A stretch of 62,783 nucleotides of DNA, counting the filler. It is 7 parts of 7 records of this genome, joined end to end, with 100 filler letters (N's around TTAATTAATTAA, not from the genome) between each part and the next. Parts side by side here need not be neighbours in the genome. Positions count along the whole stretch, not along the records: positions 33,732 to 44,056 come from SRR31147125_27723; 6 more parts are not named here. One strand, 5' to 3'. Positions 12,187-50,567 of the stretch are shown here, one piece after another; the stretch's first letter is position 1, and the number at the start of each line of letters is the position of its first letter. The translations under genes and the position numbers were made by a program. The notes below the pieces were generated by a model, which ran no database searches, was not told the DNA's origin, and worked only from the letters and a program-made list of their open reading frames with translations.

Positions 12187-12264
12187 GACATCACCCTGAT
12201 GTTATTGTTTGCCGGCTATCACATCTCTCAGGTCACCCTGTGATTCTTGTTGCAATACAGCAGT

Positions 12265-12642
12265 TTAATTCAGCACGACTACCAGTTCGTCGCTCAGGGC
12301 CTGATACGGTTGCCTTTCAGCAAGTTGTCCCTGGCGGGTGGCAGGATCAGACAAATCTGTTGAGTCACCGAACTCAATGCGATCTTCCGCAAGCCCCTTT
12401 GCCGATAAAACCTTTTGAATATAAAGTGCTCTCTCCAGCGGTCGGATCATATCGCCTTGTGCAGCACGTGGGACCGATAGGACAAGCTTCGTGTGAGGCT
12501 CACTGATCAGTGTATCGACAAGCATGTCGAGAGTGTTCAGGAGCGGCTCGCTCAAATTCAGTGAATTCGGTTGAAAATCCCGGATTATCAACGAAATCGT
12601 CTTTTTCAGAAACGGTTGGAACAGGTTGCTTTTCGTTCTCAT
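12265..12642 (-). CDS. Degenerate OmpA-C-like domain, probably the frameshifted C-terminus of the TolC protein
   Basis: FQPNSLNLSEPLLNTLDMLVDTL...ERALYIQKVLSAKGLAEDRI resembles the OmpA C-terminal pattern. It overlaps the TolC tail in another frame and ends 78 nt before the giant-protein start. Confidence 0.45.
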   Translation of the reverse strand: MRTKSNLFQPFLKKTISLIIRDFQPNSLNLSEPLLNTLDMLVDTLISEPHTKLVLSVPRAAQGDMIRPLERALYIQKVLSAKGLAEDRIEFGDSTDLSDPATRQGQLAERQPYQALSDELVVVLN

Positions 12643-14161
12643 ACCCGGCTGGAATCTTGCTTCCGGCGTTTTTCAGGACCACCGGTTCGATTTCATCATA
12701 AGGAGTGAAATCGTCCCCGTGCTGCACATCAAGGTCAGCCTGCTGTTCAAGCAGCCACGCATGTATCGCAGAGTTTCTCGGATCGGTGAGATCGGCAACA
12801 GGAAACCATTCGTCAAGTTCAATCAAGTCCTGGGGGCTGAGATTGCCGACCGCCGCTTTCAGTTTCAGGCTGTTAAGAACATAACGGTATCGTGCCCGGG
12901 CGTAGTCAATACTGATAAGTGATACATCACGCTCTGCATCAAGAACATTGAGGCTCGTGTAGAGCCCCGATGTGAACCCTTCCTGCTTTGCTTCCAGGGC
13001 AAGCCGGTTCGCTTTGACCGATTGTTCCAGCGCTTCAATCTGACTCAACGCTGTCGTCACCCCAAGGAATGCGGAGCGAACCCTTCTGCTCACCCCCCTC
13101 TCCTGTCTGATCAGCTCCTGTCGGGCAGCGCTGAGCTGATAGCCGGCCTCCCTGACCCGGGAGCTGATCCCCCCCTGGTAAAAAGGCATCGTCAGGCGAA
13201 GACTGACATCGAATGTATCGAACTCACTGCCCCCGCCGTATAGTGAATCATCGGAGTCTTCATTGTTATACCGGCCCACGACGTTTACGCGGGGATAATG
13301 CCCCGACCGCTGCCTGCTGACCTCGTATTCGGCTACCTCCACCGCATGCTTGCGCATCTCAATGGCCGGGTTCTGGTCCAGCGCCGCCTGGGTCCAGCTT
13401 TCAAGGTCTATCGGCTCCGGCGGCAACAATTCGATTTCACTTCGCAGTGGATTGAGGTCTCCGGGAGGTTGTCCTGTCGCCTCCTCAAGAGCCTGTATCG
13501 CATCATCAAAAAGGTTTTCAGCCTCTATGACAACAGCCTGATTCGTCGCTGATCGGGCCTTTGCATCATAGAAGTCAGTGATAGGTACCAACCCGAGATC
13601 GAAGCGCTCGGTGGCCAACTCGAGGTGTTTTTCCACCGCTATATGCTCAGATTTAGCGTAATCAAGCTGATCTCTTGCGGCCAGTGCCTGAAGGTACAGA
13701 TCGGTGGTTCTGACAATCAATTCCTGCTGGGCGACGAGATATCCAGCTGCGGCCCAGAGACTCTCTTTCTCAGATTGGGGAATTCCGACGTAGAGACCAT
13801 AGTCAAAAATGGGCTGGGAGAGAACGAGACCATACGCAGTGGTACCATAGTCGGTCTTCCCTTCGGTGTAGACATCGTTATCGGTCTGCTCTACATCCTG
13901 GGAGGTATATGTGTAGCTCGCAGATCCGGCAAGGGTCGGTAATAACCGTGCGATTGCCTGTCTTTTCCCTTCATCTGTCGCCAGTTTCTGGAAATGAACA
14001 GCATTGAAAGCCGGGTCATTCTCCTCCGCCAGCAGATAGACATCATGTAAGCCTGCGGCACTACCGGAGGCTGCCGCACAAAACAAAGAACTAAAAGAAA
14101 GAAAATAACAGACCGAAGACCATACTATAGTCCCAAATGAACCTGTCTGCAGTTGCACCAT
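12500..14161 (-). CDS. TolC-family outer membrane protein (type I secretion)
   Basis: Signal-like N-terminus and two OEP repeats (QAIARLLPTL, LSQPIFD, SGHYPRV, LTMPFYQGG, VLDAERD). ATG at 14161 follows GGGGAGGA. Lies directly upstream of an RTX protein. Confidence 0.9.
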   Translation of the reverse strand: MVQLQTGSFGTIVWSSVCYFLSFSSLFCAAASGSAAGLHDVYLLAEENDPAFNAVHFQKLATDEGKRQAIARLLPTLAGSASYTYTSQDVEQTDNDVYTEGKTDYGTTAYGLVLSQPIFDYGLYVGIPQSEKESLWAAAGYLVAQQELIVRTTDLYLQALAARDQLDYAKSEHIAVEKHLELATERFDLGLVPITDFYDAKARSATNQAVVIEAENLFDDAIQALEEATGQPPGDLNPLRSEIELLPPEPIDLESWTQAALDQNPAIEMRKHAVEVAEYEVSRQRSGHYPRVNVVGRYNNEDSDDSLYGGGSEFDTFDVSLRLTMPFYQGGISSRVREAGYQLSAARQELIRQERGVSRRVRSAFLGVTTALSQIEALEQSVKANRLALEAKQEGFTSGLYTSLNVLDAERDVSLISIDYARARYRYVLNSLKLKAAVGNLSPQDLIELDEWFPVADLTDPRNSAIHAWLLEQQADLDVQHGDDFTPYDEIEPVVLKNAGSKIPAGYENEKQPVPTVSEKDDFVDNPGFSTEFTEFERAAPEHSRHACRYTDQ

Positions 14162-14643
14162 CGTTTGTCCTCCCCTTTTGATTTCGCTACCAAAGCGACA
14201 GACCAGGCAAAATTTCAAATAGATAAGAGGAGGAAAGAGGAGGAAAAAACCACCTACTCTGAGCGAAACACACCCCTCTCTATGATTTGAAAATCACCCA
14301 CATACACATCCTCCTGTTTCAGAATAACATACCAGGGGGATACAATAAACAGTTATAAAGGCTTCGCGCGTGCTGTGCTAGAAGGACAGAACAATTCTTC
14401 TTGATCTGAGAAAACAGGAGGGACGATTATTTACTATGATAGACCTGCATCAGGTAAAGGCTGAACGGCTATATTGAATCTGTTTGACTTAAAGGGGCTT
14501 TGAATAATTGTCTTGTAGCCCGAAATCGATGGAGGATGTGATTTTTTATATTCCCAATATATCAAGTATATATCTGCGGTCTGTGGACGTTTTCAACAGG
14601 TCCTTGGTGCTTGAGCCAAAATCTGAAGGGATACATGGATATT

Positions 14644-16278
14644 TCAAAGTTCCCTCATAACAAAGTTTTTTTGTTTTACGTGAAACTTCCAAGGCTCAGA
14701 CAACTCCTCTTTTCGTATCACAGTCCAGTAGCGTTGCTCCTCCACACTATCCGGAAAATCACTGCTGTAATGCAGGCCTCGGGACTCCTTCCGGTTCATC
14801 GCGGAGACCACAATCATCATTGAAATCTGAACCAGATTTCTCAACTCAAGCATATTCCGATTCAAACCGTGCTGGCGGTAGATCGATTCAACCTCCTTTG
14901 CTATCGTTATGAGCCGCTCTCTGGCCAAATCGAGTCGCCTGCTGTTCCGTACAATACCGACATAGTTCCACATCGTACGCCTGAGCACATCCCAGTTGTG
15001 TGAAATCAGGACGTGTTCATCGACGAACTTCTTGTGATCCCCATTTGCGCCCTGAACCTCCCCTTCCGACCAGTCTGATTCTATAGACGCCCGGTTATCC
15101 ATGCAGTAAGTAGCGGCTTTTTCAGCATAAACAACAGCCTCAAGCAGTGAATTGCTGGCCAGCCGATTCGCACCGTGCAGCCCCGTACAGGAGGCTTCAC
15201 CGATAGCCATCAGCCCATCAATAGAACTGTTCCCCCATGAATCAACGAGAATGCCACCACAGAGGTAGTGAGCAGCGGGCACTACCGGGATCGGCTCGGA
15301 TCTGATGTCAATACCAAAGGATCGGCACTGTTGATAAATGCCTGGAAACCGATCCTTAATAAAACTGGAATCCCGATGACTGATATCGAGATACACACAA
15401 TCCTCTCCGCTTTCCTTCATTTCCTGGTCAATCGACCGGGCTACCTTATCTCTCGTCGCCAATTCGAGCCGTTCATCATACTTTTCCATAAACCGCTCTC
15501 CCCGATGATTAACGAGAATCGCTCCCTCGCCCCGAACAGCTTCGGATATCAGGAAATTCTTGGCCTGGGGATGGTAGAGACAAGTGGGGTGAAACTGGAC
15601 AAACTCCATGTTCGCAAGTTCAGCCCCTGCCCGCGATGCCGCAGCAATACCGTCACCAGTCGATATATCCGGATTACTGGTGTACAGGTAGACCTTCCCT
15701 ATTCCCCCGGTACAAACGATCGTCCGGTGCGCCCGTATTCTTGTAAGTTTATCTGTATTATCGAGAATATACGCCCCACTACAACGAGTGCCATCAGGTG
15801 TATTGGAAGTGAGGAGATCGACCAGGAGATGGTCTTCATACAGACTAATTCGAGGATTCTCTTTCGCTCTCTCTAACAGTGTTTGTTCTATTGCTCGACC
15901 AGTCAGGTCGTATGAATGAGCCACTCTCCTGAAGGAGTGCCCCCCTTCCCTTCCTAGACTGAGTCCTGAGCCATTTGCCCCCTTAACAAAATCGACCCCA
16001 TACGAAATCAGATCCTGAACCCGATTAAACCCAGCCCCGACAACAGCTGACACCACCTCATAATCGCACAGACCAGCACCGGCTATCAGTGTGTCCTCCA
16101 CATGAGAATCGATAGAATCCTGTTCGAGATCCAAAACAGCAGCAATACCGCCCTGAGCAAGGTTTGTCGCACTGTCCGCGATCCCTTTCTTTGTAATGAT
16201 CGTTACATCAGCAAACTCCGCCATCCGGAGACCACACGACAAACCCGCGATACCACTACCAATTATTAAAATTTCCAT
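14644..16278 (-). CDS. nadB: L-aspartate oxidase
   Basis: IIGSGIAG FAD motif, AQGGIAA, EGGHS, EFVQFHPT, LISEAVRGEG, AAHYLCGG, GLHGANRLASNSLLE, ESRGLH. Start moved to ATG 16278 because the upstream 'MFHVEQ' is the parS palindrome read as codons. Confidence 0.95.
   Translation of the reverse strand: MEILIIGSGIAGLSCGLRMAEFADVTIITKKGIADSATNLAQGGIAAVLDLEQDSIDSHVEDTLIAGAGLCDYEVVSAVVGAGFNRVQDLISYGVDFVKGANGSGLSLGREGGHSFRRVAHSYDLTGRAIEQTLLERAKENPRISLYEDHLLVDLLTSNTPDGTRCSGAYILDNTDKLTRIRAHRTIVCTGGIGKVYLYTSNPDISTGDGIAAASRAGAELANMEFVQFHPTCLYHPQAKNFLISEAVRGEGAILVNHRGERFMEKYDERLELATRDKVARSIDQEMKESGEDCVYLDISHRDSSFIKDRFPGIYQQCRSFGIDIRSEPIPVVPAAHYLCGGILVDSWGNSSIDGLMAIGEASCTGLHGANRLASNSLLEAVVYAEKAATYCMDNRASIESDWSEGEVQGANGDHKKFVDEHVLISHNWDVLRRTMWNYVGIVRNSRRLDLARERLITIAKEVESIYRQHGLNRNMLELRNLVQISMMIVVSAMNRKESRGLHYSSDFPDSVEEQRYWTVIRKEELSEPWKFHVKQKNFVMREL
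14672..14687. promoter_or_regulatory. Degenerate parS site inside the 3' end of nadB
   Basis: TGTTTTACGTGAAACT, 14/16 match to TGTTTCACGTGAAACA; reads as ...FHVKQ in NadB. Confidence 0.6.
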
Positions 16279-16303
16279 AACAGACCGTATATCAGACCCC
16301 CAT

Positions 16304-16319
16304 TGTTCCACGTGGAACA
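16304..16319. promoter_or_regulatory. parS: parS centromere-like site (perfect palindrome)
   Basis: TGTTCCACGTGGAACA, a 16-bp perfect palindrome matching the chromosomal parS consensus, 116 nt upstream of parA. Confidence 0.92.
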
Positions 16320-16435
16320 CTACCGAAAACCATACTCAGTTGAAAATAGACCAAAACTCAAATAAATGTTGAGTGTGATTGTTTTACTGGTATATATAGA
16401 CTCTAGTCTACTTTTCACTATCAGGGTATACCACA

Positions 16436-17209
16436 ATGAACAAGAACTCAACCGTTATCGCTGTTGCGAACCAGAAGGGTGGCGTAGGAAAAACAACCAC
16501 CGCAGTCAACCTCTCCTGCGGTCTAGCCTTACGCAACAAGAAAACGCTGCTTGTGGATTCCGATCCGCAGGGGAACGCCTCCAGCGGAGTTGGAATCAAG
16601 TCTGCAATGCGCGACAACCATCTCTATCATGTATTGTGTGGAAGTAAATCTGCAGACACTTCCGTACAGGGGACCAGTATAAAAAAGTTGTTTGTACTTC
16701 CTTCAAATATCGATCTTGTGGCGGCTGAACTTGAACTTACCACGAAGAAGAATCGAGAGAAGTACCTCAAGAAAGCACTGAAGCCACTTTTCACCGATTA
16801 CGATTATATCATTATTGACTGTCCCCCTTCCCTGGGGTTGTTGACGGTCAATGCACTGACAGCTGCTCATTCTGTCCTTATTCCCATGCAGTGTGAATAT
16901 TACGCAATGGAGGGACTGGCGCAGCTGATAAACACCATCCGGTCTGTGAAACAATCCTTGAACAAACAGCTCTACATCGAAGGATTGCTGCTCACAATGT
17001 TCGACAAAAGAAATCGTTTATCTCACCAGGTGGCTGAGGAGATTTTTAATCATTTTGGGGATCAGACGTTTACAACCCGCATCCCGAGAAATGTTCGACT
17101 CAGTGAATGCCCGAGTCATGGGAAAACAATCATGGAGTATGATAACAAATCAACAGGAGCGCTTGCTTATCGGGCACTCGCTCGTGAATTTCTCAAGCGA
17201 CAGGAGTAA
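16436..17209 (+). CDS. parA: Chromosome partitioning ATPase ParA/Soj
   Basis: NQKGGVGKTTT deviant Walker A, DSDPQGNAS, IIDCPPSLG, PMQCEYYAMEG, IPRNVRLSECPSHG. Confidence 0.97.
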   Translation: MNKNSTVIAVANQKGGVGKTTTAVNLSCGLALRNKKTLLVDSDPQGNASSGVGIKSAMRDNHLYHVLCGSKSADTSVQGTSIKKLFVLPSNIDLVAAELELTTKKNREKYLKKALKPLFTDYDYIIIDCPPSLGLLTVNALTAAHSVLIPMQCEYYAMEGLAQLINTIRSVKQSLNKQLYIEGLLLTMFDKRNRLSHQVAEEIFNHFGDQTFTTRIPRNVRLSECPSHGKTIMEYDNKSTGALAYRALAREFLKRQE

Positions 17210-18938: not shown

Positions 18939-19038
18939 NNNNNNNNNNNNNNNNNNNNNNNNNNNNNNNNNNNNNNNNNNNNTTAATTAATTAANNNNNN
19001 NNNNNNNNNNNNNNNNNNNNNNNNNNNNNNNNNNNNNN
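18939..19038. other. Artificial contig spacer
   Basis: N44-TTAATTAATTAA-N44 (stops in all six frames). Confidence 0.99.
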
Positions 19039-24050: not shown

Positions 24051-24150
24051 NNNNNNNNNNNNNNNNNNNNNNNNNNNNNNNNNNNNNNNNNNNNTTAATT
24101 AATTAANNNNNNNNNNNNNNNNNNNNNNNNNNNNNNNNNNNNNNNNNNNN
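24051..24150. other. Artificial contig spacer
   Basis: N44-TTAATTAATTAA-N44. Confidence 0.99.
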
Positions 24151-31910: not shown

Positions 31911-33631
31911 TTAATTGTAACCCTCATTCTGTTTTATTTCGTAACCATTTGCTTCGTACAATTCTCTTTCCGCTTGTGGAATTGGCATAAGATAATCGCG
32001 TGGAGCTGTAAAATCACGTTCATGGGCATTTTGCCAGTTACCGTTTAACCTTGAATCATAGGCATGGTCAACAACAACACCATCAATCAAAAGCGTGTGC
32101 CAGTTGTCATATTCAGAACGGTCGCCATAAGTAACAACACCATCATTATCGATACTTGGAATACTTGTTGGGCTTGCATTTTTAAAGTCTAAAATACGGC
32201 CGATAAGTGGTTCACTACGAACTTTCTCTGCAATTCTCCAACGTAACATATCAATATAGCGGAAGCCTTCGTTGGCTAACTCTACGCGACGTTCCATACG
32301 AAGCACCTTACGCATTTCATCTTGCGAACCAGCTGTTACCATTGGGTAGTCGCCACCATTCCAGGCACGCTCACGTAACATATTTAAGGCATCTGCAGCT
32401 TCCTGCATACTTCCATTCGATTCAATTTCAGCTTCTGCTTTAATCAATAGAATTTCTCCCAAACGCATCAGAATAATATCATTGTACGCCTTATTTATAT
32501 TTACAGCAAGTGATGCCTCGTCAACATATTTTTTCCATAAATAACCGGTTAATCCAGCAGGCCACTGTGCCGAGCGACAATCTTCGTTGGTAACCCGTTG
32601 TTTAACACCATCAACAAACTTCCATGTTTTTAAACTATCACGATGTGACTCGTAAACATAACCAGCCCACTCATCTTGCGAAAATACAATTGAAGCACGC
32701 AAACGGGGATCACGATTATCCCAAGGATTCTGGTAGTCATATTCCGGATCTTCATCAATTGGCAGTCCATTATTTGTTGGATAAGCATCAATCAAATTCT
32801 GAGTAGGAAGCATTTGGCTGAAAATACTTCCGAAACGATACCCCATTCTTAAGGGGAAATTATGTGAACGTCCCCATGCTTCATCAAAAGGAACACGCAT
32901 CATTGTTTCACTATTATTTTCACCAGCCAGTGTAAACAATTCGTTATAATTAGGATGCAAACTTAAACCTTGAGCATTTGCAGCAGAAATTGCTGCATCG
33001 GCTGCATCAGCGGCAACATCATACTTTTCATTGTAAAGTGCAATTCGTGCTTTTAAACCTTGTATAACGGCCAAAGTAATTCGTTCCTGAGATCCTGTAA
33101 GGTCTGTGTTAATTTTTGTTGCGGCATCATCTAAATCACTTAACAATGTGCTTACAATTTGTTCTTTTGGTGTACGTGGTAAAAATCCACCATCGGTTGA
33201 AGTAGGCAGAAAATCTAAATAGGGAACATCGCCAAAAAACTGAATCAGAAAATGATAATAGTATGCCCGAAGCGTTAAAGCCTGTGCTTGAAAATCTTCA
33301 TATTCAGCCACTTCCATCGTTTCCTGAGCACGTTCCATATTTTGCAACATATTATTGGCCTGGCCAATTGCTTTATAATAGGCGCTATAAAGTCCATCGA
33401 ATCCGCTGCTTGGATCATGAATACTGTTGCTCAATGCCCTTAATCCGAAGTGTTCATCGGTTATACGGTATAACATATCATCGGTAAGAATAGCATCCAT
33501 GTAGAAAGTTACCGGCATTCCTTCGGTATTAGGAGTCCACAGGCTTCCATGTATGGCATTAAGAGCTAATTGCAACTGATTTGCATCTGAAAAGAACGTA
33601 ACATCAGTTGGATTCGACAAGGGTTCGAGTT
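31911..33631 (-). CDS. SusD/RagB-family glycan-binding lipoprotein, 5'-truncated
   Basis: LRAYYYHFLIQFFGDVP, RDPRL, TGYLWKKY, MRLGEILLIKAEA, ERRVELANEGFRYIDMLRW, PIPQ...QNEGY. Confidence 0.93.
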
Positions 33632-33731
33632 NNNNNNNNNNNNNNNNNNNNNNNNNNNNNNNNNNNNNNNNNNNNTTAATTAATTAANNNNNNNNNNNNN
33701 NNNNNNNNNNNNNNNNNNNNNNNNNNNNNNN
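33632..33731. other. Artificial contig spacer
   Basis: N44-TTAATTAATTAA-N44. Confidence 0.99.
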
Positions 33732-33748
33732 AGGCGGGGCTGTTTAAT

Positions 33749-34465
33749 CTAGCAAATTGATTTATGGTTCTCAACTTCAATTAAGTATTTTTGTAGCCAC
33801 TCGTATTTACATTTTACCGAAATATCAGATGCCTGTAATCCATCAGTAATCAGCTTCCTTACATCATTCAAAAAGGTGTTGTATTCATACCCTGGTTCAG
33901 TATCCATACCCAAGAAGTTCGTGTAATAGTAATTATTCTCACAAGGACAAAGTAAATTTAATACCAATTCTTTTTCTTGATCTTTTGTATGTAAATAACT
34001 CGGATTGTTATATGCAAAGTCAACTAGTACTGGATCGACAACAATTCTGGGATATATAGCAATTTTTGATTCCATTTCATATGCTTTTATCATAGCTGGC
34101 CCGACAACAACACCTCCATCGTGAAACACATCGCCCAGTGTTACACCACCTCTAATTAATAAACCCATTGCTATCAAATCTATCTGCATAGAAATAATAT
34201 CAAATAGGACGCCAAATATGGCACCTTCCTTTGATATGTCATAAGAAATAACAATAGAATCAGAAAATGCGGTTAACTCTTTGCCAATATCAAATTTAAT
34301 CCCTGTAGAATTTTTCCGACTGCATTCCATATTCTTTAGTTCAACTAGACTTTCAATTAGTTTAGCTCTGAACTGAACATCTTCAGTCTTTTTAACAATA
34401 TTCTTGAATCCCAATATATCTAAAAAGACTACCGCTTTTTTCTTGTAGTTTAAATCTATAGACAT
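33749..34465 (-). CDS. Stand-alone, divergent class III nucleotidyl cyclase-like protein
   Basis: VVFLDILGFK (first metal Asp), AFSDSIVI (second Asp), LIRGGVTLGDV, and VGPAMIKAYEMES (equivalent of GxxVNxAxRME), then YPRIVVD. Confidence 0.72.
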   Translation of the reverse strand: MSIDLNYKKKAVVFLDILGFKNIVKKTEDVQFRAKLIESLVELKNMECSRKNSTGIKFDIGKELTAFSDSIVISYDISKEGAIFGVLFDIISMQIDLIAMGLLIRGGVTLGDVFHDGGVVVGPAMIKAYEMESKIAIYPRIVVDPVLVDFAYNNPSYLHTKDQEKELVLNLLCPCENNYYYTNFLGMDTEPGYEYNTFLNDVRKLITDGLQASDISVKCKYEWLQKYLIEVENHKSIC

Positions 34466-34553
34466 AATAATACTCTTCTTACTGTTTATATATTTTATTA
34501 TGGCCCTGATTAATTCGACTCTCTTACTCTCTGGTGTACTGGCATAAATTAAT

Positions 34554-35099
34554 TCAATTTATCAATTCTAACAATTTTTCATATAACTTAGCTGTAGCCA
34601 TTGCATCTCCCAATGCTGTATGTCGGCCTTGAACAGTAATTCCGAAGTGTTTAAAAGCTGAGGCCGAACTAGATAATTCAAGTTCAATTTTATCTGCATC
34701 TTGTAAAAATCTAATTATCGAGTATGTATCAACAATTCTGTGAGAAAAATGCTTACTAAAACTTCTACGATTATCTCTAAGCAATTTTTTTATAAAAGCG
34801 ATATCGAATTGAGTATTATGACCTGCCAAGTTAGCTAAACCATTACTATATTTACTACAAAAATATAATAGACTATTTATGGCTTCTTTTTGCGATACTG
34901 CTTTCTGGTTATGTAGTTCTTCGTTAAATTTATTGATTTTTTGAGCTCCGCTTGTCACACAATATTTCTTGGATTTTATGAAAATTTCAATAGTATCTAT
35001 AACTCCATGGCCTTGTTCCCAAGCAACACAACCAATAGACAATAAAGAGTGTGTCTGCGGGTCAATTCCACCTGTTTCCGTATCAATAAATATCAGCAT
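34554..35099 (-). CDS. DEDDh 3'-5' exonuclease (DnaQ/RNase T/Orn-like)
   Basis: ExoI FIDTETGG, ExoII AGHNTQFD, VDT, ExoIII HTALGDA. GAGGT RBS; start overlaps the upstream stop (ATGCTGA). Confidence 0.92.
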   Translation of the reverse strand: MLIFIDTETGGIDPQTHSLLSIGCVAWEQGHGVIDTIEIFIKSKKYCVTSGAQKINKFNEELHNQKAVSQKEAINSLLYFCSKYSNGLANLAGHNTQFDIAFIKKLLRDNRRSFSKHFSHRIVDTYSIIRFLQDADKIELELSSSASAFKHFGITVQGRHTALGDAMATAKLYEKLLELIN

Positions 35100-35884
35100 T
35101 GTTTTACCTCTTCTTGAAATTCTATTAATTCTCCATTATCAACATATTTTTTGAGTTCTCTAGAGTGGGATTTTATAGTTTCTATTTCATCTGAAATGTA
35201 GTTAAAAAACTCTCCGCCTTTATTAGCTTTTATTGCAGGAACCGATCCTTTTTCAGGTTTCTTATGATTGAAAAAAGACATGTAACAAGTATCATTGATT
35301 CTGTAGTAGCTTGCTTGGAGAGAATGATTAAATGCATAAACTTTAGCCCCTATATCTAAACAATCATGAATACATTCTAAAATGCGAGATTTTGTTTCTC
35401 CTTTTTTTTCAGGTAAAAAAGAAAAGCGCCTATCAAACTCTTCCATACATTCTTCTATTTGGGGGTTAGGAACATAGCAATTTATTGTTCCGCCACTTTT
35501 TATGAACTTTTCAAGGATATCTCTGTTACTTTCCCGCCATGTTCTTCCGTATACAAAGATCACATCCAACGATTTTGCCTTCTCTAATTCAACATCCCAA
35601 TTAATTCTTAAAAAGTTAAAATATATAGTCTCTATTCCGCTCTGATCAATATTATTTGATATTCCAATTAGTTTTCTAATTTGGAGCGCAAATGTATACT
35701 TCGCAATTGTTTCCCATAAGACATTTGCTAATAATGCTGTTGCTCCTGCAGACATAACCGTTATTAGGAAAATACGCCATGTATCATTAGCGATCTTTTC
35801 TAACAGAAAATAACTAACGAAAAACAAAGCAATAGCTGAAAAACCGCAGACGCATACAATTTTCCAATTAACTTGCTTGCTCAT
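35093..35884 (-). CDS. Two-TM membrane protein with a C-terminal PLD-like/DUF5919-like soluble domain
   Basis: Two N-terminal hydrophobic helices, then SGIETIY...W...AKSLDVIFVYGRTW...GGTINCYVPNP...SYYRINDTCYMSF...P.I...GGEFF. No HKD motif. GGAGG RBS. Domain call is from pattern memory. Confidence 0.6.
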   Translation of the reverse strand: MSKQVNWKIVCVCGFSAIALFFVSYFLLEKIANDTWRIFLITVMSAGATALLANVLWETIAKYTFALQIRKLIGISNNIDQSGIETIYFNFLRINWDVELEKAKSLDVIFVYGRTWRESNRDILEKFIKSGGTINCYVPNPQIEECMEEFDRRFSFLPEKKGETKSRILECIHDCLDIGAKVYAFNHSLQASYYRINDTCYMSFFNHKKPEKGSVPAIKANKGGEFFNYISDEIETIKSHSRELKKYVDNGELIEFQEEVKQC

Positions 35885-35981
35885 TTGCTTGCCTCCATCG
35901 TTATATTAAACTTGAAATATTTAGACCATTCCTTCAAATTGAAGTTCCCAAGATAATCGTAATAATCAATGTTGCGCTTTG

Positions 35982-36002
35982 AAAAAAGCTCTGCTGGCTT
36001 TT
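35982..36002 (-). terminator. Weak hairpin possibly ending the BREX transcript
   Basis: Minus strand AAAAGC-cagcaga-GCTTTTTT in the 269-nt gap after the desulfurase. Confidence 0.35.
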
Positions 36003-36153
36003 GAAATATCAATTTATTTGTCATCAAGGCACTTAGTATCTCTCAGCAAAATTATATATGATTTTATTACCTGCAAGTATATTATTGTTCGCTGGAAAAC
36101 AATATTGGCCTGCAGTCATGCAGTTCTAAGCCCTAAAGAAAAATTTTTTGACG

Positions 36154-37284
36154 TTAAACACGCAATATTTTCTTTAAAGTTGTTACTATCATATTAACAT
36201 CGTCTGGGGTGTTGTATTTTCCAAACGAGATTCGTATAGTTCCATTAGCATATTTTGCTGGAATGTGTAGTGCTTTAATAACATGTGACAACTCCGTACT
36301 CATAGAATTACATGCTGAACCTGTTGAAATGGCTATACCAGCTAAATCCATTCTATGGAGTATGGCCTCACCATCTATCCCGTTTATTGAAATGCTCACT
36401 AGACCGGGAAGCTTTGGAGCATCACCGTTAAGGACAAAATTAACACCTGCATATTTCAATTGGCCAAGCAATGATGCCTCCAATTGAGTTTGCAAAGCAA
36501 TATTAACATCCATGAAGTCAATGTTATTTTTTAGGGCAGCACTCATCGCAATAATTCCCGAAATATTCTCTGTCCCAGCTCTCAAGTGTTTTTCTTGGTC
36601 ACCACCATGTGCGAAGGGCAATATTTCCGTTCCATTTTTTATATATAAAAAGCCAACACCTTTAGGCCCATTGAATTTATGCGCAGACGATGACAGCATG
36701 TCGACGTCCAATTCTTTTACATCAATTGGAACATGACCTACAGCCTGAACGGCATCAGTATGAAAATAGCTGCCGTTTTTATGTGCGATCTCAACCAATT
36801 TCCGTATTGGCTGAATGGTGCCAATTTCGTTGTTAGCATACATAACTGAAACGAGCCGTGTATCAGGCGTAATAAATTGCGATAGTGTTGATGGCTCAAC
36901 TACTCCGTATGAGCTTACGGGGAGATATGCAACGGGATACCCCTTATACTCCATGAAACTGCAAGCACGCAAGATAGCATGATGCTCAATAACAGATGTG
37001 ATTATAGAAGGCTTGTCCGCTCCGTATGTGGCAATACCTTTAATTGCCCAGTTATCACTTTCAGTTCCGCCAGAAGTAAAATAGATTTCATCTTCTTCAG
37101 CGTTGATGGCCTTAGCAATGATCCTGCGAGCTTCCTTGAGTGCTTTCTTTGGTGCTCTCGCAGAGGAATAAAGACTCGATGCGTTGCCGTATTCTTCAAG
37201 CAAATACGGTTGCATTGCATCATATGCACATTTATCCAGTTTTGTAGTTGCCGCATTGTCTGCGTAAATAAAGTGATTTTGCAT
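36154..37284 (-). CDS. Group I cysteine desulfurase (IscS/DndA-like), BREX-associated
   Basis: YADNAATT, FTSGGTESDN, HTDAVQA, SAHKFNGPKG, RAGTEN, STGSAC. ATG 37284 follows GAGG, 8 nt past the brxL stop. Confidence 0.93.
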   Translation of the reverse strand: MQNHFIYADNAATTKLDKCAYDAMQPYLLEEYGNASSLYSSARAPKKALKEARRIIAKAINAEEDEIYFTSGGTESDNWAIKGIATYGADKPSIITSVIEHHAILRACSFMEYKGYPVAYLPVSSYGVVEPSTLSQFITPDTRLVSVMYANNEIGTIQPIRKLVEIAHKNGSYFHTDAVQAVGHVPIDVKELDVDMLSSSAHKFNGPKGVGFLYIKNGTEILPFAHGGDQEKHLRAGTENISGIIAMSAALKNNIDFMDVNIALQTQLEASLLGQLKYAGVNFVLNGDAPKLPGLVSISINGIDGEAILHRMDLAGIAISTGSACNSMSTELSHVIKALHIPAKYANGTIRISFGKYNTPDDVNMIVTTLKKILRV

Positions 37285-37292
37285 ATACCGCC

Positions 37293-38741
37293 TCAATAAT
37301 TATATTTAATATCCGGAATATCCTTTTTCCCTGGAACATTGAATTCCCGTGGGTCAACAATACATAACTGTTTCTTTATTGTACGACGCATTTCCATTGC
37401 AGGTTCAAGGCAATACTTAATGAATTCCTCTGGTGCAATATCTGACTTTTTCTTTGCCTGCGGAAAAATTAGCTTTACAAAGGCCGTACACAATCTTTTA
37501 ATCGCAGTTAAATCGCGCAAATCCGGTTTTTCTGGAATCAGCAATGCTTCATCAACAATCGCTGAATAAATCATTTCATCACGAAGTGCATGTAATACTT
37601 CCGCAAAATACTCCGTATTTAGTGCCCACCCATTGGCAACAAGTCCTTGGTGCATTCGAGGAATTTCCCATCCGGGTATCATACCGTGAAATCTATCCAA
37701 AGTTGCCGATTCTCTAAAAATTGGGTTTATTTCTTCTACCATATTTGTATTTGTGTCAAATCTACTCGCGTCAATGTTACCTAATACTATGATACCGGCA
37801 TCAGCCTCAGTTTTTGAGTCAAACCCCTTGATTTCGCCAAACTCCATGTAGTCTTTTAAAGCGGTCTGAATTTGGCCGGACTGTTCAAATTTCATGGTTT
37901 GTATTTCATCAAATGCCACAAAATCAAACCGAGTAATCAGACCACCAGTCTTTTTAGCATTATCATAAATCAGTGAAGCTCTTGAAACTGTACCTCCTGA
38001 TATCAGCCAACCTCTCTTACTTATTTTATGAAAAACATAACTTTTCCCTGTACCTTTCGGCGCTAGTTCAATCAAATTGACGCGACGTTCAACGAACGGC
38101 AGGAGTCTTCGTAATACAAATAATTTTTGCTTTTCCGAATCATATCCATCTGGATTGTAATCTGCTGAAGAAATCAGTACGTCAATCCATTCTTCAGTCG
38201 AAAAATTTTTGCGTCCTTCACGATATACGCCAAAGTCTACTGTATAAGGACAGAAAGGGCTATAATCTACCATCTTAATATAACCATTTGCTTTTTTGCT
38301 AGAGTAATCTCGGCTCCAAACAAGCTCAACAATGCCCCAGTTCTCATTTTCCCGTAGCAGCGTTTCTTGCCACTTATCTGCGACTAAGTTTTCTGCAATT
38401 CCTCCTGCGCCTGACCGGGTTCCACCAAAATCGGGAAGTTCAAACGTTGTTTGTCCAGACTTTATATCCACTGATACACGTAGCCGTGCCAAAAAGCGGA
38501 CTGCCTCACCATTAATAAGTCGGAATTTTAATTGTTCAAAATCCTCTTGGCTTGGTATATAGGTCTTAATATACGTCGAAACGCGGTCAATATCTATTTC
38601 CCCATTTTCATCAGAAAATTTCATTACAAGCCAGTCTCGCATATATGATGGCAAACTCAAACTAGAGAAAAACTCTGTGCGTTTTGGATTTTTTAGAACT
38701 ACCATGTCTGGAAACACGTCTCGTATTTTTTTGTCGTTCAT
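37293..38741 (-). CDS. brxL: BREX BrxL-like AAA+ ATPase without the C-terminal Lon protease domain
   Basis: EEWIDVLI, RLLPFVE...NLIELAPKGTGKSY (Walker A), VAFDEIQ (Walker B), ESATLDRFHG.IPGWEIP; 482 aa. Confidence 0.88.
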   Translation of the reverse strand: MNDKKIRDVFPDMVVLKNPKRTEFFSSLSLPSYMRDWLVMKFSDENGEIDIDRVSTYIKTYIPSQEDFEQLKFRLINGEAVRFLARLRVSVDIKSGQTTFELPDFGGTRSGAGGIAENLVADKWQETLLRENENWGIVELVWSRDYSSKKANGYIKMVDYSPFCPYTVDFGVYREGRKNFSTEEWIDVLISSADYNPDGYDSEKQKLFVLRRLLPFVERRVNLIELAPKGTGKSYVFHKISKRGWLISGGTVSRASLIYDNAKKTGGLITRFDFVAFDEIQTMKFEQSGQIQTALKDYMEFGEIKGFDSKTEADAGIIVLGNIDASRFDTNTNMVEEINPIFRESATLDRFHGMIPGWEIPRMHQGLVANGWALNTEYFAEVLHALRDEMIYSAIVDEALLIPEKPDLRDLTAIKRLCTAFVKLIFPQAKKKSDIAPEEFIKYCLEPAMEMRRTIKKQLCIVDPREFNVPGKKDIPDIKYNY

Positions 38742-38758
38742 GACGGAACACCCCTCAT

Positions 38759-38962
38759 TTATAGGAACAATGTACAGCCCTGCTCTTTAAACTCCTGTAT
38801 TTTAATTTCTAAATCTTTTCTGCTACATTCTAAATATTCGGCAAGGCAATCAATGCAATAGAATTCTTCGCTATCAGGACCTAATAACTTTTTTGTTAAT
38901 GCTGTTTCATCTTTTTTTAATGCTTTATTACATTCACAACAAACATGTTTTCTTCGCGCCAT
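38759..38962 (-). CDS. Small Cys-rich, probably Zn-binding protein (67 aa) in the BREX operon
   Basis: MARRKHVCCEC...FYCIDCL...FKEQGCTLFL. ATG lies 1 nt after the pglZ stop, behind GGGGGA; stop is 17 nt before brxL. Confidence 0.8.
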   Translation of the reverse strand: MARRKHVCCECNKALKKDETALTKKLLGPDSEEFYCIDCLAEYLECSRKDLEIKIQEFKEQGCTLFL

Positions 38963-38963
38963 T

Positions 38964-41320
38964 TTATGGAAGTCCCCCCATGTTCCCAGTGCTGATTCCA
39001 CTTGCAATTGTCAATTTCGCTTTTTTATTCAGAAGTCGTCCATTTGCTGTGATCATTAGTTCAACGTCTCCACCACGTCCTATGCTCTCAAAGTACATAA
39101 GCCATTTTGTTGGATCGACGGTCTTTAAGCAATTACAAGTACCTCTATCAAGATCAATTTCCAACGAGTATACCGGAGCGTCAAATTGAATTTCTGTTGA
39201 AGCCTTACCACCTTTTGCTTTTAATTGTTCTGTTTGAATGGTAAACACTAGCGGTTTTGGAGGACCAGATCGCTTAAGGACTATCACTGGAACAATGCAT
39301 TCTTCCGGTGTTAAACCTCCATGCAATTCTCCTGCAATTGCAGTATCATCCGTATTACCACCTGCGGCATTTCCAGATTGTTTATAATGATTATAATCCT
39401 TCATTACCAGATACTGTTTACCCTCGAACTTGCATAATGCGACATTATCCAATAAATCTTCTGGTGCTGGGTCTTTTTCTAGCTTACAAAAGCGACCATG
39501 TGCCATTGCTACTGCTCCAGCAGGCAAAAAAGTATATGCAGAGTGAAAAGCCAATGCTGCTAAGCGACTGCTGCCATGATCGCCCGTCATAATGACATAT
39601 TCGTGTTCATCGAGCATAGATATAGCTTCTTGTGTAAGTTCGATAATTGCCTGTATTTGCCCCGCAATACAAGAAAAATAGTCATGATCATCTGGCATTC
39701 CTTTGTGCGAGAGGGTGTCTAGGCGATTACGTTTTATATACTCAAATTCATTTTTATCCCATTGTTCATTGAATTCGGTTTCAGAAGGGATGCGAGCAGC
39801 AGCGATATATGTCCTGTAATCAAATTTTAATTCCCTGCGCTCATCCAATATGTTACACACAAGCGACATCCATTCTAGTCCCATTCCATCGACCCAGAGT
39901 GCCTCGCAATCATGCCCGTTATACTCGGACAATAGTGAAAACCTCGTGTCCAAATTTTCAATGTCAGGGTATGACAGTGGCTTATCTACGACACGATTGA
40001 TAAACTTGTTTCGTTTGTACCACGAAAAATATTCTGTGTAGCTTTTATAATGAGATTTTGGAGTAGTCATATATGCAGATAGCTCTGGAAACACGTGCTT
40101 TACTTCAGCTGCTACCTTATTATAAGCTTCTGAAGAGCTGGCACTCGTTCGTAGCCAACGACATACCGTCTTAATAATATACGCTCGTTCTTCTTGTGTA
40201 GTTGCAGTAAGAAGTTCAAGAACGGTATCTGGCATATACCCATCCAATTCAGCAAAGAACTTTGCCGATGGAATGGCATTTCTAAGCCCTGCATAATGCT
40301 ACGCCTTTGCATAACCCAATCTGGTTTGCTTTTGATGTACGGAATAATATCATTGGCAACGTGAGATGCTACATCTCCCAATTCGCTTGGCAAAAGTCTA
40401 TGGATAATAGAGCCCACATAATCTTCAGGTGTATGTACCTGAAACCATATCCATACATATAAACGACTGATATCATCCAAAGCATCCCATCGGGAAATAA
40501 CGCTCGAGCTATCGAATTGCTTCAAGTTGATAGCTGTCAAAATCGCATTATCAACGCTACCATGTTTCTGCGTGTCTTTGAGAAGTTTTGCCCAGTATAA
40601 GTTATCTAAACAAGAAGGTGAAATAGAGTTAATTGAGTTATCAATTCCGGCTAAAAAATCATAGGGATTTTTAATTATATTGATGGTTACTGTCCCGAAA
40701 GTATCCTCACAGTCGTTATATTGAGACGTCACCAGCATAGCATTACCATCTGATAGCTTCGTTCTCCAAGTCAGCAGCCAATCTTTGAAGCCTGCAGCAG
40801 CATAATAATCCGGTAGGGCCTCACGGAACATATCAGAATAAATTGTAACGTAATATTGATTTTTTTCTGTATCATCTAATTGCCATAAAAAATCTACTTG
40901 CCGTGCATTCACTGTGCCTACGACACGTTCGAAAAGCTCAGATGCAGAAAAAACCGGCATAAAGACACGGGTTTGCGTATCAACAGAATATTGCTTACTC
41001 CAAAAATCTTCAAACTGCGAAGCTTCAGTTTGTGGACTTTCACGCCGAATAGCCATACGCAAATATTCTCCTATAGACAGCAGCAATATCTGTTTATTTT
41101 GTTCTTTACTGATACGAGCAATCAGTTTTGAGAAACGAGGATGCGTATCGTTGCCAGCACAAAATTCACCCAAGTTGAGTGTGAGATCACAGCAGGTTTT
41201 CAACTGATGGACAAGATTGTTGTACCCTTTCAAGCTATTGCAGAAAATAATACGAAGTGGATAACGTGAGATAATGCACCGCTCTTCATCAACTTTCTGC
41301 ATGATTTCTGTAATGTTCAC
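38964..41320 (-). CDS. pglZ: BREX PglZ alkaline-phosphatase-family protein (type 4-like, ~785 aa), split by a frameshift at ~40280
   Basis: LWVDGMGLEW, PSETEFN, LDTLSH, TGDHGSSRLA, HGGLTPEECIVPV. ORFs 40112..41320 and 38964..40247 join (GLENAIPSAKFFAELDGY) if one A is added at 40279-40281. AGGAGG precedes GTG 41320. Confidence 0.88.
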
Positions 41321-41338
41321 AATACGCCTCCTGTTCCC

Positions 41339-44056
41339 TTAATCAACAAAGAATTTGTAGAGCTCAGGATATTTCTCCATTGCTGATACGATACGTTTGC
41401 GCAAAATGTCTACGTTATAATGCATAACGTTTTTCTTTGCGTCAGTTTCAACCTTAACAGCATATTTTGCCTTGATATAGGTCTCCACAATGCCCGCAAT
41501 TTTTCCTCCCTGATTTGCCCAACCGTATACATTTGGCCCACACTGAACTCTAATTTTTGTATAGATTTCATCCTGATATACTACGAAATCTTCACGGAAT
41601 CTTTCTCCAATCTGTTCAAAAAACTTGTTGGTAATAAAATGAGCGTCCCGTAAGTAGGAAAAATCTCCCATAGTGAAATATTTGTTAGCATTATAAAGAT
41701 CATTATCGCTTACAAGCTTATTGTGGTTAATATCAGCTACACAAGTAAAAAATGAAATGTCATCTTTAGGAACAACCCATTGGATCGGTACCTGAAAATT
41801 CTTACACCAAGCATCCACAGTATCGAAACCACTAATTTCAAGCCACCGTGATGTCAAAAGTGTTTTGTTATGCTCATGTTTAATTGAATTCAGAGAACGA
41901 CTGATCACTGCCTCAAAAGCCGGAAGGGCAGTACTATAATCCCACTCTTTTGCTTCGTTATAAACCGTTTCAACATCATCGTCACTGTATGGAATTCCTT
42001 TTGCTGCGATATATTTTTCAAGCAACACTTTGGAGCTACCAACGTTTTGCCAGGCATTTTTACCATGTTGCTTTAATACGGTGACTAAATTTTCTCTGTC
42101 GGCTCGATCAACATTTTGCCATGGAGTCTGCGTAAGCTTGTACATCAAGTCCAGTGCGTCAAACCATGGGAAGTTCATTGCTGCAATAACTGTTCCCGGC
42201 ACTTTCATAATAGAGAAACAATTTTTCATTGTTTTAATATGCCCTGATAAGGTCTTTTCCGTAGTGCCAAGTGCATCGTTTAGTTCATTTATGACAGAGT
42301 ATTCCAAAGTTAAATCTGCAAGTTTATCTTTAACCTGTTCCTCGGTCCATGTATCAATATTTACTTGCATAAGCCTTTTTACAGCATCAAAAAGCTCACT
42401 ATCATTTAATCGCAATGAGTCTACCAGCCCTTGCAGCTCCTCTGATTGCGCACACAGGAACGACTTAAATGCTGAATACCTAAGAGATTCATTTCCATAG
42501 TTATCGGCAAATGCTTTACGTATTTTCCCCTTTCCAGTAAAGAGGTTAATGACCGTAGCCATTATCTCTTCTTGATCATCTCCATCGCGCTTTTGTGTAA
42601 ATTTATAAAAACCGTCAATTGCGGCATCATAGGTAACCTTTGCATCAATCCCACCGACCGCATTAATATCAACATATTTTAAAGCCCAGAGTGGTACACC
42701 TGAAGCAATTATTTTAGCACACAACGAATGTCTAGCACGTTCTTCATTCGGGATTTCATTTTCAATTAAATTGAAAACTTTACTCAAGTATGGCTTAAAT
42801 TCTTGCCATATTTTTGAGCCAGAAGAAAGCGTATGATTGATTACTTTTTCTTGACACATTGCAAGAATCATGGATGCTAAATTTTTCTCTGAAAGGGGGA
42901 AAGGATTTGAATCGCTATTTACCCAGTTAAAGTCACTGCCTTTCCAAAACCGAAATACAAAACCTAGTAGGTAAACACAAGTATGGTTATTATAATAGCC
43001 AAATGGAGGTTTCTGTAGTTCTAACCAAAGTGCATCAAGGGGGATCTTCGCACCCTGTATCATTTTGCCATGAATGTAGGCAGCCAGCTGAGCTACAGCC
43101 TTTGCAGCAGGTGAACCTGACGAAAGTTCGAGAGACTCAATAGTATCTATATCCCATAATTTTGCTGTCTTTACCGCATTTTCTATATTCTTGATCTGTG
43201 CATTGTTTGGCGAGTTAAGTGTCACGCCTGCCAGGGCTGTACTTTCATGAGCTTTTTTGTACGCAGTATTGGTCTGCACAACAAGCTCAGGGGCAGCTTG
43301 GAAAACGGCAAAAATCACATCATTCTTAATGCGTTTGCGTAGCTCTCCAGAGCCAAAGATATTCTGATATATTTTCTCTCCGTAAAAAGCAGCAAGCTGA
43401 CTATTGATAGCACTGCCACTCCACGTCTCACGGATGGTTGCCATCTCTAATTCATATTTTTGCTTTGAGGCATCCTTTCCGTCTTCATTGGCCAATTCAT
43501 AATTCGTTTTAGAACGATACCATGAATTCAGAGTCTCATAAGAGAGGGGCTCCTTTAAAACGCAGAAAACCATACGACCGGTATCGTTTTGTTTGACATA
43601 GTCCTGAATTTTTGTTTGTACTGGTACATAATGACTATTTTCGGAAATGACAACGGTTAAAAGCCCAATTTTATAGGGGCTTTTAGTAAGCTCAGCTTCT
43701 ATCTCCTCATAGCGCTGCTTTATGCTTTGTGTATCCTCAGAGCATGCAGCAATACACATACGTGAAAATGTCGCATCATTTTTATCCCAGAGTTGATTCT
43801 CGATTGACTTAGAAAATTCTCCACCTTTGCGGAAAAGCATATATCTAGTATTGTCCTTTGCCGTTTTCTCCAGACGTACATCGAATTTTTCCACATTACG
43901 GCCATATGGTAGTTCTAAACGTGCGTCTTTCCCATTAGGCGTTTCAGCAAGCAACAAGATATCGCTGTCGTGCAATCCTTGCAGACATTCATCAACTTTC
44001 TCAGGCTTTAATTGCCCGGCGAAACATCGCCGTAAAGTGTTTCTCGTCGCATCGAC
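41339..44056 (-). CDS. C-terminal ~905 aa of a large BrxC/PglY-like protein, 5'-truncated (ATPase motifs not in view)
   Basis: Frame is open to the contig end, contains LQKPPFGY, and ends 18 nt upstream of pglZ. The call rests mainly on gene position. Confidence 0.65.
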   Translation of the reverse strand, partial: VDATRNTLRRCFAGQLKPEKVDECLQGLHDSDILLLAETPNGKDARLELPYGRNVEKFDVRLEKTAKDNTRYMLFRKGGEFSKSIENQLWDKNDATFSRMCIAACSEDTQSIKQRYEEIEAELTKSPYKIGLLTVVISENSHYVPVQTKIQDYVKQNDTGRMVFCVLKEPLSYETLNSWYRSKTNYELANEDGKDASKQKYELEMATIRETWSGSAINSQLAAFYGEKIYQNIFGSGELRKRIKNDVIFAVFQAAPELVVQTNTAYKKAHESTALAGVTLNSPNNAQIKNIENAVKTAKLWDIDTIESLELSSGSPAAKAVAQLAAYIHGKMIQGAKIPLDALWLELQKPPFGYYNNHTCVYLLGFVFRFWKGSDFNWVNSDSNPFPLSEKNLASMILAMCQEKVINHTLSSGSKIWQEFKPYLSKVFNLIENEIPNEERARHSLCAKIIASGVPLWALKYVDINAVGGIDAKVTYDAAIDGFYKFTQKRDGDDQEEIMATVINLFTGKGKIRKAFADNYGNESLRYSAFKSFLCAQSEELQGLVDSLRLNDSELFDAVKRLMQVNIDTWTEEQVKDKLADLTLEYSVINELNDALGTTEKTLSGHIKTMKNCFSIMKVPGTVIAAMNFPWFDALDLMYKLTQTPWQNVDRADRENLVTVLKQHGKNAWQNVGSSKVLLEKYIAAKGIPYSDDDVETVYNEAKEWDYSTALPAFEAVISRSLNSIKHEHNKTLLTSRWLEISGFDTVDAWCKNFQVPIQWVVPKDDISFFTCVADINHNKLVSDNDLYNANKYFTMGDFSYLRDAHFITNKFFEQIGERFREDFVVYQDEIYTKIRVQCGPNVYGWANQGGKIAGIVETYIKAKYAVKVETDAKKNVMHYNVDILRKRIVSAMEKYPELYKFFVD

Positions 44057-44156
44057 NNNNNNNNNNNNNNNNNNNNNNNNNNNNNNNNNNNNNNNNNNNN
44101 TTAATTAATTAANNNNNNNNNNNNNNNNNNNNNNNNNNNNNNNNNNNNNNNNNNNN
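44057..44156. other. Artificial contig spacer
   Basis: N44-TTAATTAATTAA-N44. Confidence 0.99.
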
Positions 44157-50467: not shown

Positions 50468-50567
50468 NNNNNNNNNNNNNNNNNNNNNNNNNNNNNNNNN
50501 NNNNNNNNNNNTTAATTAATTAANNNNNNNNNNNNNNNNNNNNNNNNNNNNNNNNNNNNNNNNNNNN
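50468..50567. other. Artificial contig spacer
   Basis: N44-TTAATTAATTAA-N44. Confidence 0.99.

Follow-up and report, generated by a model that had tools for sequence, protein, structure and literature searches.

The window analysed here is a stretch of DNA of 62,783 nucleotides (nt), and at positions 33749–35884 it carries three co-oriented genes, here called g1, g2 and g3, at the 3′ end of a type 4 bacteriophage exclusion (BREX) operon. The initial annotation had taken the three genes for a single nucleotide-signalling defence cassette. Comparison of related loci points instead to two separate accessory modules lying side by side, a conserved pair formed by g1 and g2 and a stand-alone g3, and we give this reading a probability of about 60%. 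The genes and their spacers are:

35884..35093, minus strand: g1, a membrane protein of 263 amino acids (aa) that leads the conserved pair (open reading frame (ORF) call)
35099..34554, minus strand: g2, a DEDDh 3′-5′ exonuclease of 181 aa, second gene of the conserved pair
34465..33749, minus strand: g3, a stand-alone protein of 238 aa with a class III nucleotidyl-cyclase (CHD) fold and a C-terminal helical extension
34466..34553, minus strand: spacer of 88 nt between g2 and g3
35885..36153, minus strand: spacer of 269 nt between a cysteine desulfurase gene and g1, the likely promoter region of g1 and g2

The association of g1 with g2 is conserved. Four loci with a g1 homologue were inspected, three from a metagenome scan with a g1 alignment (L035–L037) and one from a viral-contig scan with a DEDDh alignment (L040). 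In all four, the g1 homologue is immediately followed by a DEDDh gene, at a distance of 80 nt in L035 and with an overlap in L036, L037 and L040. The pairing of a membrane protein with a nuclease proposed in the initial annotation is upheld. The longest contigs of g1 and DEDDh homologues are equal in size in 8 of 13 cases (28563, 4170, 5497, 3481, 56214, 5220, 1740 and 1961 nt), and 4 of 10 further g1-family clusters also share their longest-contig size with a DEDDh homologue. Among the loci of DEDDh relatives at 25–49% identity, a g1-family gene is found near only 1 of 82, the closest one (L040, 49%); the link between g1 and g2 is specific to the close DEDDh subfamily. In L040 (IMG/VR, 2153–6814) the pair lies between two HNH genes and a type IV restriction-like gene of MrcB_N+NOV_C composition. 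The HNH gene ahead of the pair shares 17 nt with the g1 homologue, and the three may form one operon there. No further g1 loci came from viral contigs searched with alignment A2, the single proteins P0270 and P0271 or the L040 protein (which found only itself), nor from plasmids searched by tblastn with g1, P0386 and P0353.

The third gene does not follow the pair. A g3 homologue is missing from all three g1+g2 loci with enough sequence (L036, L037 and L040), where the gene after the pair is on the opposite strand (L036 and L037) or is the MrcB_N+NOV_C gene (L040). The g3 family was surveyed at 99 loci, 34 from genomes and 65 from viral contigs of IMG/VR, with neighbours taken within 5–6 kb; these loci lie outside the closest g3 relatives (50–77% identity, P0001–P0014) and the closest relatives of the pair. 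Genes of the g1 or g2 family are absent beside g3-family genes at all 34 genome loci and all 65 viral loci, and g3 has no fixed partner at these loci, no neighbour family occurring at more than 5 of the 99. Similarly, none of the 13 g1 homologues shares a longest-contig size with any of 120 listed g3 homologues. Homologues of the three genes are thus rarely together, an outcome that the initial annotation had itself named as speaking against its cassette, and the view of the three genes as one unit is not supported.

Elsewhere, the trio is found together only in near-identical DNA of another sample. Run X2, a sludge metagenome from another study, contains a contig of 940 nt that covers positions 34203–35142 with 17 differences (~98% identity) and runs from g3 across the spacer and g2 into the end of g1; fragments of the desulfurase gene and brxL occur in this run as well. 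Run X3 contains g3 and part of g2. The trio is a block inherited as a unit at the strain level, which does not make it an evolutionarily conserved system.

The layout of the locus is as the initial annotation had described it, with three genes in the same orientation, an overlap of 7 nt between the ATG of g2 and the stop codon of g1, and gaps of 88 nt and 269 nt. All three are genuine genes with homologues elsewhere. The trio is also more AT-rich than the BREX genes, as had been judged by eye: the guanine-plus-cytosine (GC) content is 0.327 for g1, 0.324 for g2 and 0.329 for g3, versus 0.39–0.41 in the five upstream genes (desulfurase, BrxL, PglZ and BrxC-like). The weak hairpin reported for the 269-nt spacer stands only in part; small stems are present, but the spacer folds no better than its shuffled versions (z +1.10). 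The 88-nt spacer likewise folds no better than shuffles (z 0.44) and has no stable hairpin, and a terminator-like site is found in neither spacer. With neither of these features between g2 and g3, transcription of the pair could run on into g3. The Bacteroidota-type promoter motif TAnnTTTG has one match in the 269-nt spacer, at 36047–36054, and across the window the motif occurs as often as expected by chance (50 found, 51 expected).

The protein encoded by g1 has two predicted N-terminal transmembrane helices (2TM), at about residues 10–31 and 36–57, followed by a domain of the phospholipase D (PLD) superfamily at about residues 80–247. In its AlphaFold model (predicted local distance difference test (pLDDT) 80.0, from a 14-sequence alignment), helices at residues 7–30 and 34–82 run over the two hydrophobic stretches and an alpha/beta domain follows. 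Foldseek matches the model to TrmBL2, TrmB, F13, PLD, Nuc, BfiI and Zucchini at E values of 7e-7 to 1e-4, and the VIA comparison of residues 80–247 gives Z scores of 12.3 for TrmBL2, 12.1 for NucT, 11.9 for Nuc, 11.7 for SauUSI and 11.6 for both FAM83B and PLD, the lowest cited score being 10.3. On these matches a 2TM protein with a PLD-like sensor domain, as first annotated, is a fair description. The protein matches no family in Pfam, NCBIfam, PADLOC or PHROG.

The PLD fold is present in g1, but the HxK(x)4D (HKD) catalytic motif of the PLD superfamily enzymes is missing. The sole conserved histidine, H207, is invariant in 14 close relatives but conserved at less than 90% across 88 family members; the lysine at +2 varies. 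Near-invariant in the 88 members are W57, F65, G83, W96, Y112, P139, Y194, V215, P216 and G224. Since the catalytic histidine and lysine of the HKD motif are lacking, the domain most likely binds a ligand or nucleic acid and does not cleave it; we read g1 as a 2TM anchor carrying a PLD-like domain that is probably inactive as an enzyme and serves in binding. The best structural matches to residues 80–247 include non-catalytic PLD-fold domains, namely the C-terminal domain of TrmB/TrmBL2 and the DUF1669 domain of FAM83 (Z 12.3, 11.6 and 10.8), which have no conserved HKD motif either. They differ from g1, which bears a 2TM anchor instead of a DNA-binding helix-turn-helix and is only 7–16% identical in sequence.

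A word search retrieves 13 g1 homologues, and a profile search retrieves 1,234 cluster representatives at 50% identity (E≤1e-3), of which 669 remain at 1e-10 and 186 at 1e-30; nearly all are 245–280 aa long and match end to end. The g1 family is absent from the 401 genomes of a phylum sample, which has no positive-control genome. ESM Atlas gives unnamed clusters only. A lead from that resource to DUF5919, carried by 35% of the members of one cluster, was not borne out by Pfam scans of the 88 family members, and the term DUF5919 is absent from the full-text literature searched.

The second gene encodes, as the initial annotation had it, a DEDDh nuclease. The protein matches Pfam RNase_T over residues 3–173 (5e-16), the Cas-associated DEDDh model of PADLOC (1.1e-23) and PHROG 192, 'DNA polymerase exonuclease subunit' (1.7e-29). 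It contains the three Exo motifs of the DEDDh (DnaQ-like) superfamily with the D-E-D-D-h residues, and the catalytic D6, E8, D99, H160 and D165 are invariant in 45 sequences; by sequence, g2 is a DEDDh exonuclease with intact catalytic residues. Its nearest solved relatives by sequence are generic, including DnaQ, PolC-exo, Cas2-DEDDh, Orn and RNase T (E 1e-8 to 1e-4). A total of 661 homologues were retrieved. In a sample of 301 Lachnospiraceae genomes that has no positive-control genome, none carries g2 at E≤1e-25, and the relatives in phage and plasmid records are distant (25–35% identity) and have no g1-like neighbour. The g1 and g2 families are both sporadic in the genomes sampled.

The protein encoded by g3 adopts a class III cyclase domain in its AlphaFold model (pLDDT 89.1), and Foldseek matches it to adenylyl cyclases at an E value of 2e-5 and a probability of 1.00. 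In the VIA comparison, the guanylate cyclase 3et6_B scores Z 15.2 (root-mean-square deviation 2.9 over 162 residues), many adenylyl cyclases score Z 13–15 and about 20 cyclases exceed Z 11, whereas solved Pycsar cyclases score 10.7–11.9, GGDEF domains about 9–10 and the Cas10-family subunit Cmr2 9.7. In an alignment of 46 sequences F14, D16, G19, F20, F67, S68, R105, G106, H115, E132, R140, K220 and W223 are invariant; the conserved stretches are FxD16xxGF, FSD69S, R105-G-G and P139-R140, with D69 conserved at ≥90%. From their positions in the FxDxxGF and FSDS motifs, we take D16 and D69 to be the pair of metal-binding aspartates of class III nucleotidyl cyclases. The segment GPAMIKAYEMES of g3 has Ile and Glu where the transition-state Asn and Arg of the cyclase motif (N)xxx(R)xES would be expected, judged by motif position and not by alignment to a reference, which would set g3 apart from the class. 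The term 'atypical cyclase' used in the initial annotation is apt. No Pfam family matches at E≤1, PF00211 (Guanylate_cyc) included, nor does any NCBIfam or PADLOC family, the sole PADLOC match being AbiEii at an E value of 0.0062, and a profile of the 46 sequences finds no cyclase among PDB sequences. PHROG 23933 matches g3 at 1.2e-41; apart from this entry, g1 and g3 are named by no library tested.

The g3 family comprises at least 383 proteins, and its members occur singly on plasmids, in prophages and in defence islands. In 55 plasmid records its genes stand isolated and are annotated as hypothetical, in the vicinity of transposases, toxin-antitoxin pairs and repABC; the family also occurs on 65 viral contigs of IMG/VR, whereas the INPHARED phages contain no match at E≤1e-8. 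On several repABC plasmids of rhizobia and agrobacteria (H10, H11, H16–H18, H21–H23; L123) a g3-family gene recurs within 1–4 kb of the start of the record, near repABC. Relatives of g3 adjoin type I restriction-modification genes, DRT4/6, subtilases and integrases, as well as AbiH (L007 and L010), an Abi_alpha/DUF2806 protein (L026) and a TIR-STING effector (L022). In the last case, from Chryseobacterium hispalense (L022:3942-6789), the g3-family gene lies 52 nt behind the effector gene (prok_STING 4.6e-39, TIR 8.5e-32), which is preceded by a gene for a 361-aa protein.

The operon at 36154–44056 on the minus strand is a known system, a type 4 (phosphorothioation) BREX cut by the end of its contig. 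The initial annotation placed the trio directly behind BREX; the neighbourhood is correct, with the amendment that the nearest upstream gene encodes a cysteine desulfurase, the last gene of type 4 BREX. Two features of this operon are:

36154..37296, minus strand: cysteine desulfurase, DndA/SspA-like (E 1e-130), sharing 4 nt at its start with brxL
38759–39007, minus strand: zinc-finger ORF of 82 aa with two CxxC pairs, between pglZ and brxL

BrxL is recognised by PADLOC at 1.3e-186. PglZ is split between two ORFs in different frames, 38964–40247 and 40112–41320, that overlap by 136 nt (PADLOC); the N-part has 402 aa and the C-part 427 aa, the local depth in run X1 is about 2–5, and the split is either a frameshift or an assembly error. 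Further towards the contig end, an 878-aa ORF has a weak PADLOC match to BrxC. No PglX was seen among the genes of the contig scanned with PADLOC, and g1, g2 and g3 match none of its BREX models. According to the available portion of PMC12914056, type 4 BREX consists of brxP-brxC-pglZ-brxL and writes phosphorothioates; parts of PMC12914056 and PMC12839542 add a cysteine desulfurase and a small zinc finger.

The window consists of at least seven contigs glued together and is not one molecule. The joins are recognisable by six linkers of the form N44-TTAATTAATTAA-N44 (0.02 expected by chance), in which TTAATTAATTAA is presumably a linker with stops in all frames of the kind used for joining draft-assembly contigs:

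33632..33731, no strand: artificial contig-joining linker, N44-TTAATTAATTAA-N44, which bounds the contig of the trio
18939–19038, 24051–24150, 33632–33731, 44057–44156, 50468–50567 and 57629–57728: all six linkers in the window

Gene adjacency across these points is therefore artificial. The trio lies on a contig of 10.3 kb (33732..44056), the other end of which cuts the BREX operon, and the stop codon of g3 is 17 nt from the near end. Record 9 of run X2 reaches 82 nt beyond this near end. Because the contig ends just past g3, the SusD-like gene at 31911–33620, beyond the linker, is no true neighbour. The GC content is 0.50–0.59 in the first ~16 kb (1–17000, with one 1-kb bin at 0.45), 0.32–0.44 in most of the rest and 0.53–0.56 at 51–53 kb, and these differences indicate that the glued contigs may stem from more than one organism. 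On another contig, a 704-aa ORF at 48409–50523 matches the PADLOC model CARF_m8--CARF_Beta-galactosidase_LolE_TM over part of its length (1.5e-25), and the match most likely covers the glycosidase-like part only.

A working model can be outlined for the two modules. The first, g1 with g2, is a conserved, translationally coupled two-gene unit that would act against phages or mobile elements. In it, g1 would be an inner-membrane effector with a cytoplasmic pseudo-PLD domain that senses a ligand derived from nucleic acid (3′ ends or short oligonucleotides), and g2 would set the level of this ligand by removing or producing it. The model is drawn by analogy with type III CRISPR loci, in which the CorA membrane effector comes with a DEDD or NrN nuclease, and its details, namely the sensing by a dead PLD domain in a membrane effector and the removal or production of the ligand by the DEDDh enzyme, are put forward tentatively, at about one chance in four. 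The pair has no linked synthase, so the infection itself would have to supply the ligand. The second module, g3, would be an enzyme of mobile elements that converts nucleotides independently of any fixed partner; it probably acts alone in making or consuming a nucleotide. A complex prediction for residues 78–263 of g1 with g2 gave no support and no verdict, and is used neither for nor against the model.

Several points weigh against a division into two modules. The three genes are co-oriented, have an equally low GC content (0.324–0.329) and are not separated by a terminator between g2 and g3. The trio is kept as a block at short range, and its inheritance as a block in run X2 (~98%) means that the genes could be co-transcribed and functionally coupled here. 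The g1 loci inspected directly number four and the contig-size matches are indirect, and there may be a young trio-specific lineage among the closest relatives (g3 P0001–P0014, 50–77%). With regard to the proposed function, the loss of the HKD motif in g1 was read from alignment and secondary structure, not from superposition; the proposed defence role of the pair draws on two informative neighbourhoods, and both its ligand and its function are putative.

Among the alternatives, g1 and g2 might form a pair with no immune role, either an addiction module of a membrane toxin and its neutralising partner or a membrane-anchored nuclease pair for the uptake or processing of mobile-element DNA. The tight coupling of the two genes, their sporadic and mobile distribution and the position of one locus (L040) on an IMG/VR contig are in keeping with such a role. 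However, the five invariant catalytic residues of the DEDDh enzyme would be unusual for a mere antitoxin, and both informative neighbourhoods consist of restriction or defence genes, so that we consider this explanation unlikely. A bolder extension, which we hold to be a long shot, is that g1 and g2 constitute a widespread, unnamed two-gene immune system of more than 1,000 clusters, with free 3′ ends or short oligonucleotides, arising as a phage degrades or injects DNA, as the ligand and a dead-PLD sensor of a type new to bacterial immunity; the pair would here have captured a co-transcribed g3 to give a young three-part circuit.

The three-gene cassette of the initial annotation, in which g3 would make a signal, g1 would bind it through the PLD-like domain and perforate the membrane, and g2 would degrade it, we regard as improbable. 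The effect of the signal on g1 could be activation, the mode of Pycsar and CBASS, or restraint, the mode of Panoptes. The folds suit the three roles, the genes share orientation and GC content with no terminator between them, and the trio is intact in near-identical DNA of a second study. A synthase with a 2TM effector is an established architecture, described for Panoptes in the available part of PMC12657218, and in type III CRISPR loci a membrane effector is found together with DEDD nucleases, as outlined in portions of PMC10600005. The comparative evidence nevertheless speaks against g3 as the signal maker for g1: relatives of g1 or g2 occur at 0 of 99 g3-family loci, g3 is missing from 3 of 3 informative g1+g2 loci, and shared contig sizes link g1 homologues to DEDDh homologues in 8 of 13 cases and to g3 in none. 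Moreover, g3 occurs singly on plasmids and prophages and does not match the PycC models of PADLOC.

Phosphorothioate links resist exonucleases. The pair, with or without g3, could on this basis be an accessory arm of type 4 BREX in which a 3′-5′ exonuclease stalled by phosphorothioates spares the marked host DNA and degrades unmarked incoming DNA at the membrane, with g1 as an anchor, but although brxL and the desulfurase gene immediately precede the pair on the same strand, and the portion of PMC12914056 available describes a system that writes phosphorothioates and has an undefined restriction arm, this is very unlikely, since BREX is present at only one of the two loci long enough to tell (L040 has HNH and MrcB_N+NOV_C genes, and L035–L037 are too short), the pair starts 269 nt behind the operon and is about 7 points lower in GC content, and the words DEDD, exonuclease and cyclase do not occur in the main text, as distinct from the supplements, of the component survey PMC12839542.

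These considerations bear on what deserves further attention. Adjacency in a single defence island, with the contig stopping after another 17 nt, gives little basis for proposing a multi-gene system, and of the three genes it is the conserved g1+g2 pair that merits further study. Should this pair prove to be a defence system, it would bring a new sensor domain, the pseudo-PLD, together with a DEDDh enzyme that gates a membrane effector without a synthase. The g1 family is large, with its 1,234 representatives at 50% identity, yet no Pfam, PADLOC or NCBIfam model covers it. A cheap target is the g3 family, cyclase-fold proteins that mobile elements carry as single genes and that have no known product or partner.

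In line with the initial annotation, which had recognised no named system in the combination, the trio matches none in PADLOC v2; the combination is unnamed because it is not recurrent. The literature searched, supplementary tables that may list candidates aside, yielded no description of a DEDDh and transmembrane pair, a PLD-like transmembrane antiphage protein or a stand-alone cyclase-fold family. Type 4 BREX resembles the locus in that the operon directly upstream holds the BrxC-like gene, PglZ, the 82-aa CxxC ORF, BrxL and the desulfurase; g1, g2 and g3 are not among the components described in the portions of the sources available (BrxP, BrxC, PglZ, BrxL, desulfurase, zinc finger and BrxR), and they are set apart by the 269-nt spacer and their lower GC content. 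CBASS differs in that no CD-NTase (cGAS/DncV-like) model of PADLOC or Pfam matches g1, g2 or g3, and g3 has a class III cyclase fold.

Pycsar, which combines PycC with PycTM or PycTIR, shares with g3 the overall fold (VIA Z 11.9 for 8jsz, 11.4 for 7r65 and 10.7 for 8jsf) and has a transmembrane protein nearby. Ordinary adenylyl and guanylyl cyclases, however, are closer to g3 (Z 13–15) than the Pycsar enzymes are. Moreover, g3 matches neither a PADLOC PycC model at E≤1 nor Pfam Guanylate_cyc, and has relatives that are not accompanied by a conserved adjacent effector, while g1 has a PLD-like domain and no Pfam family that would indicate a cyclic-nucleotide-binding domain. Panoptes, as far as the available part of PMC12657218 describes it, consists of the synthase OptS, an mCpol or minimal Cas10-type polymerase, and the 2TM beta-barrel effector OptE, and has no nuclease. 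The likeness is a palm-domain nucleotide synthase near a two-pass membrane protein with a soluble domain that may read nucleotides, and a guard-type logic would be conceivable. On the other hand, g3 reaches Z 15.2 with class III cyclases and 9.7 with Cmr2, a comparison made without an mCpol profile and with PADLOC v2 dated 2023; the soluble domain of g1 is PLD-like and not a beta-barrel (S-2TMbeta), CARF or SAVED domain, and the g1 and g3 families are uncoupled (0/99 and 0/3 loci).

The remaining comparison is with the module of CorA and a DEDD or NrN nuclease in type III-B CRISPR, which signals through SAM-AMP. It differs from the pair in that g1 has no CorA match and shows a 2TM and PLD-like fold instead, no signal synthase is linked to g1 and g2, and no cas10 or other cas gene is present among the scanned genes of the 10.3-kb contig (PADLOC) or the L040 neighbours (Pfam). 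The Cas-associated DEDDh model of PADLOC matches g2 at 1.1e-23, and, as portions of PMC10600005 describe that module, both place a membrane effector, putative in the case of g1, beside a small and intact DEDD-type nuclease.

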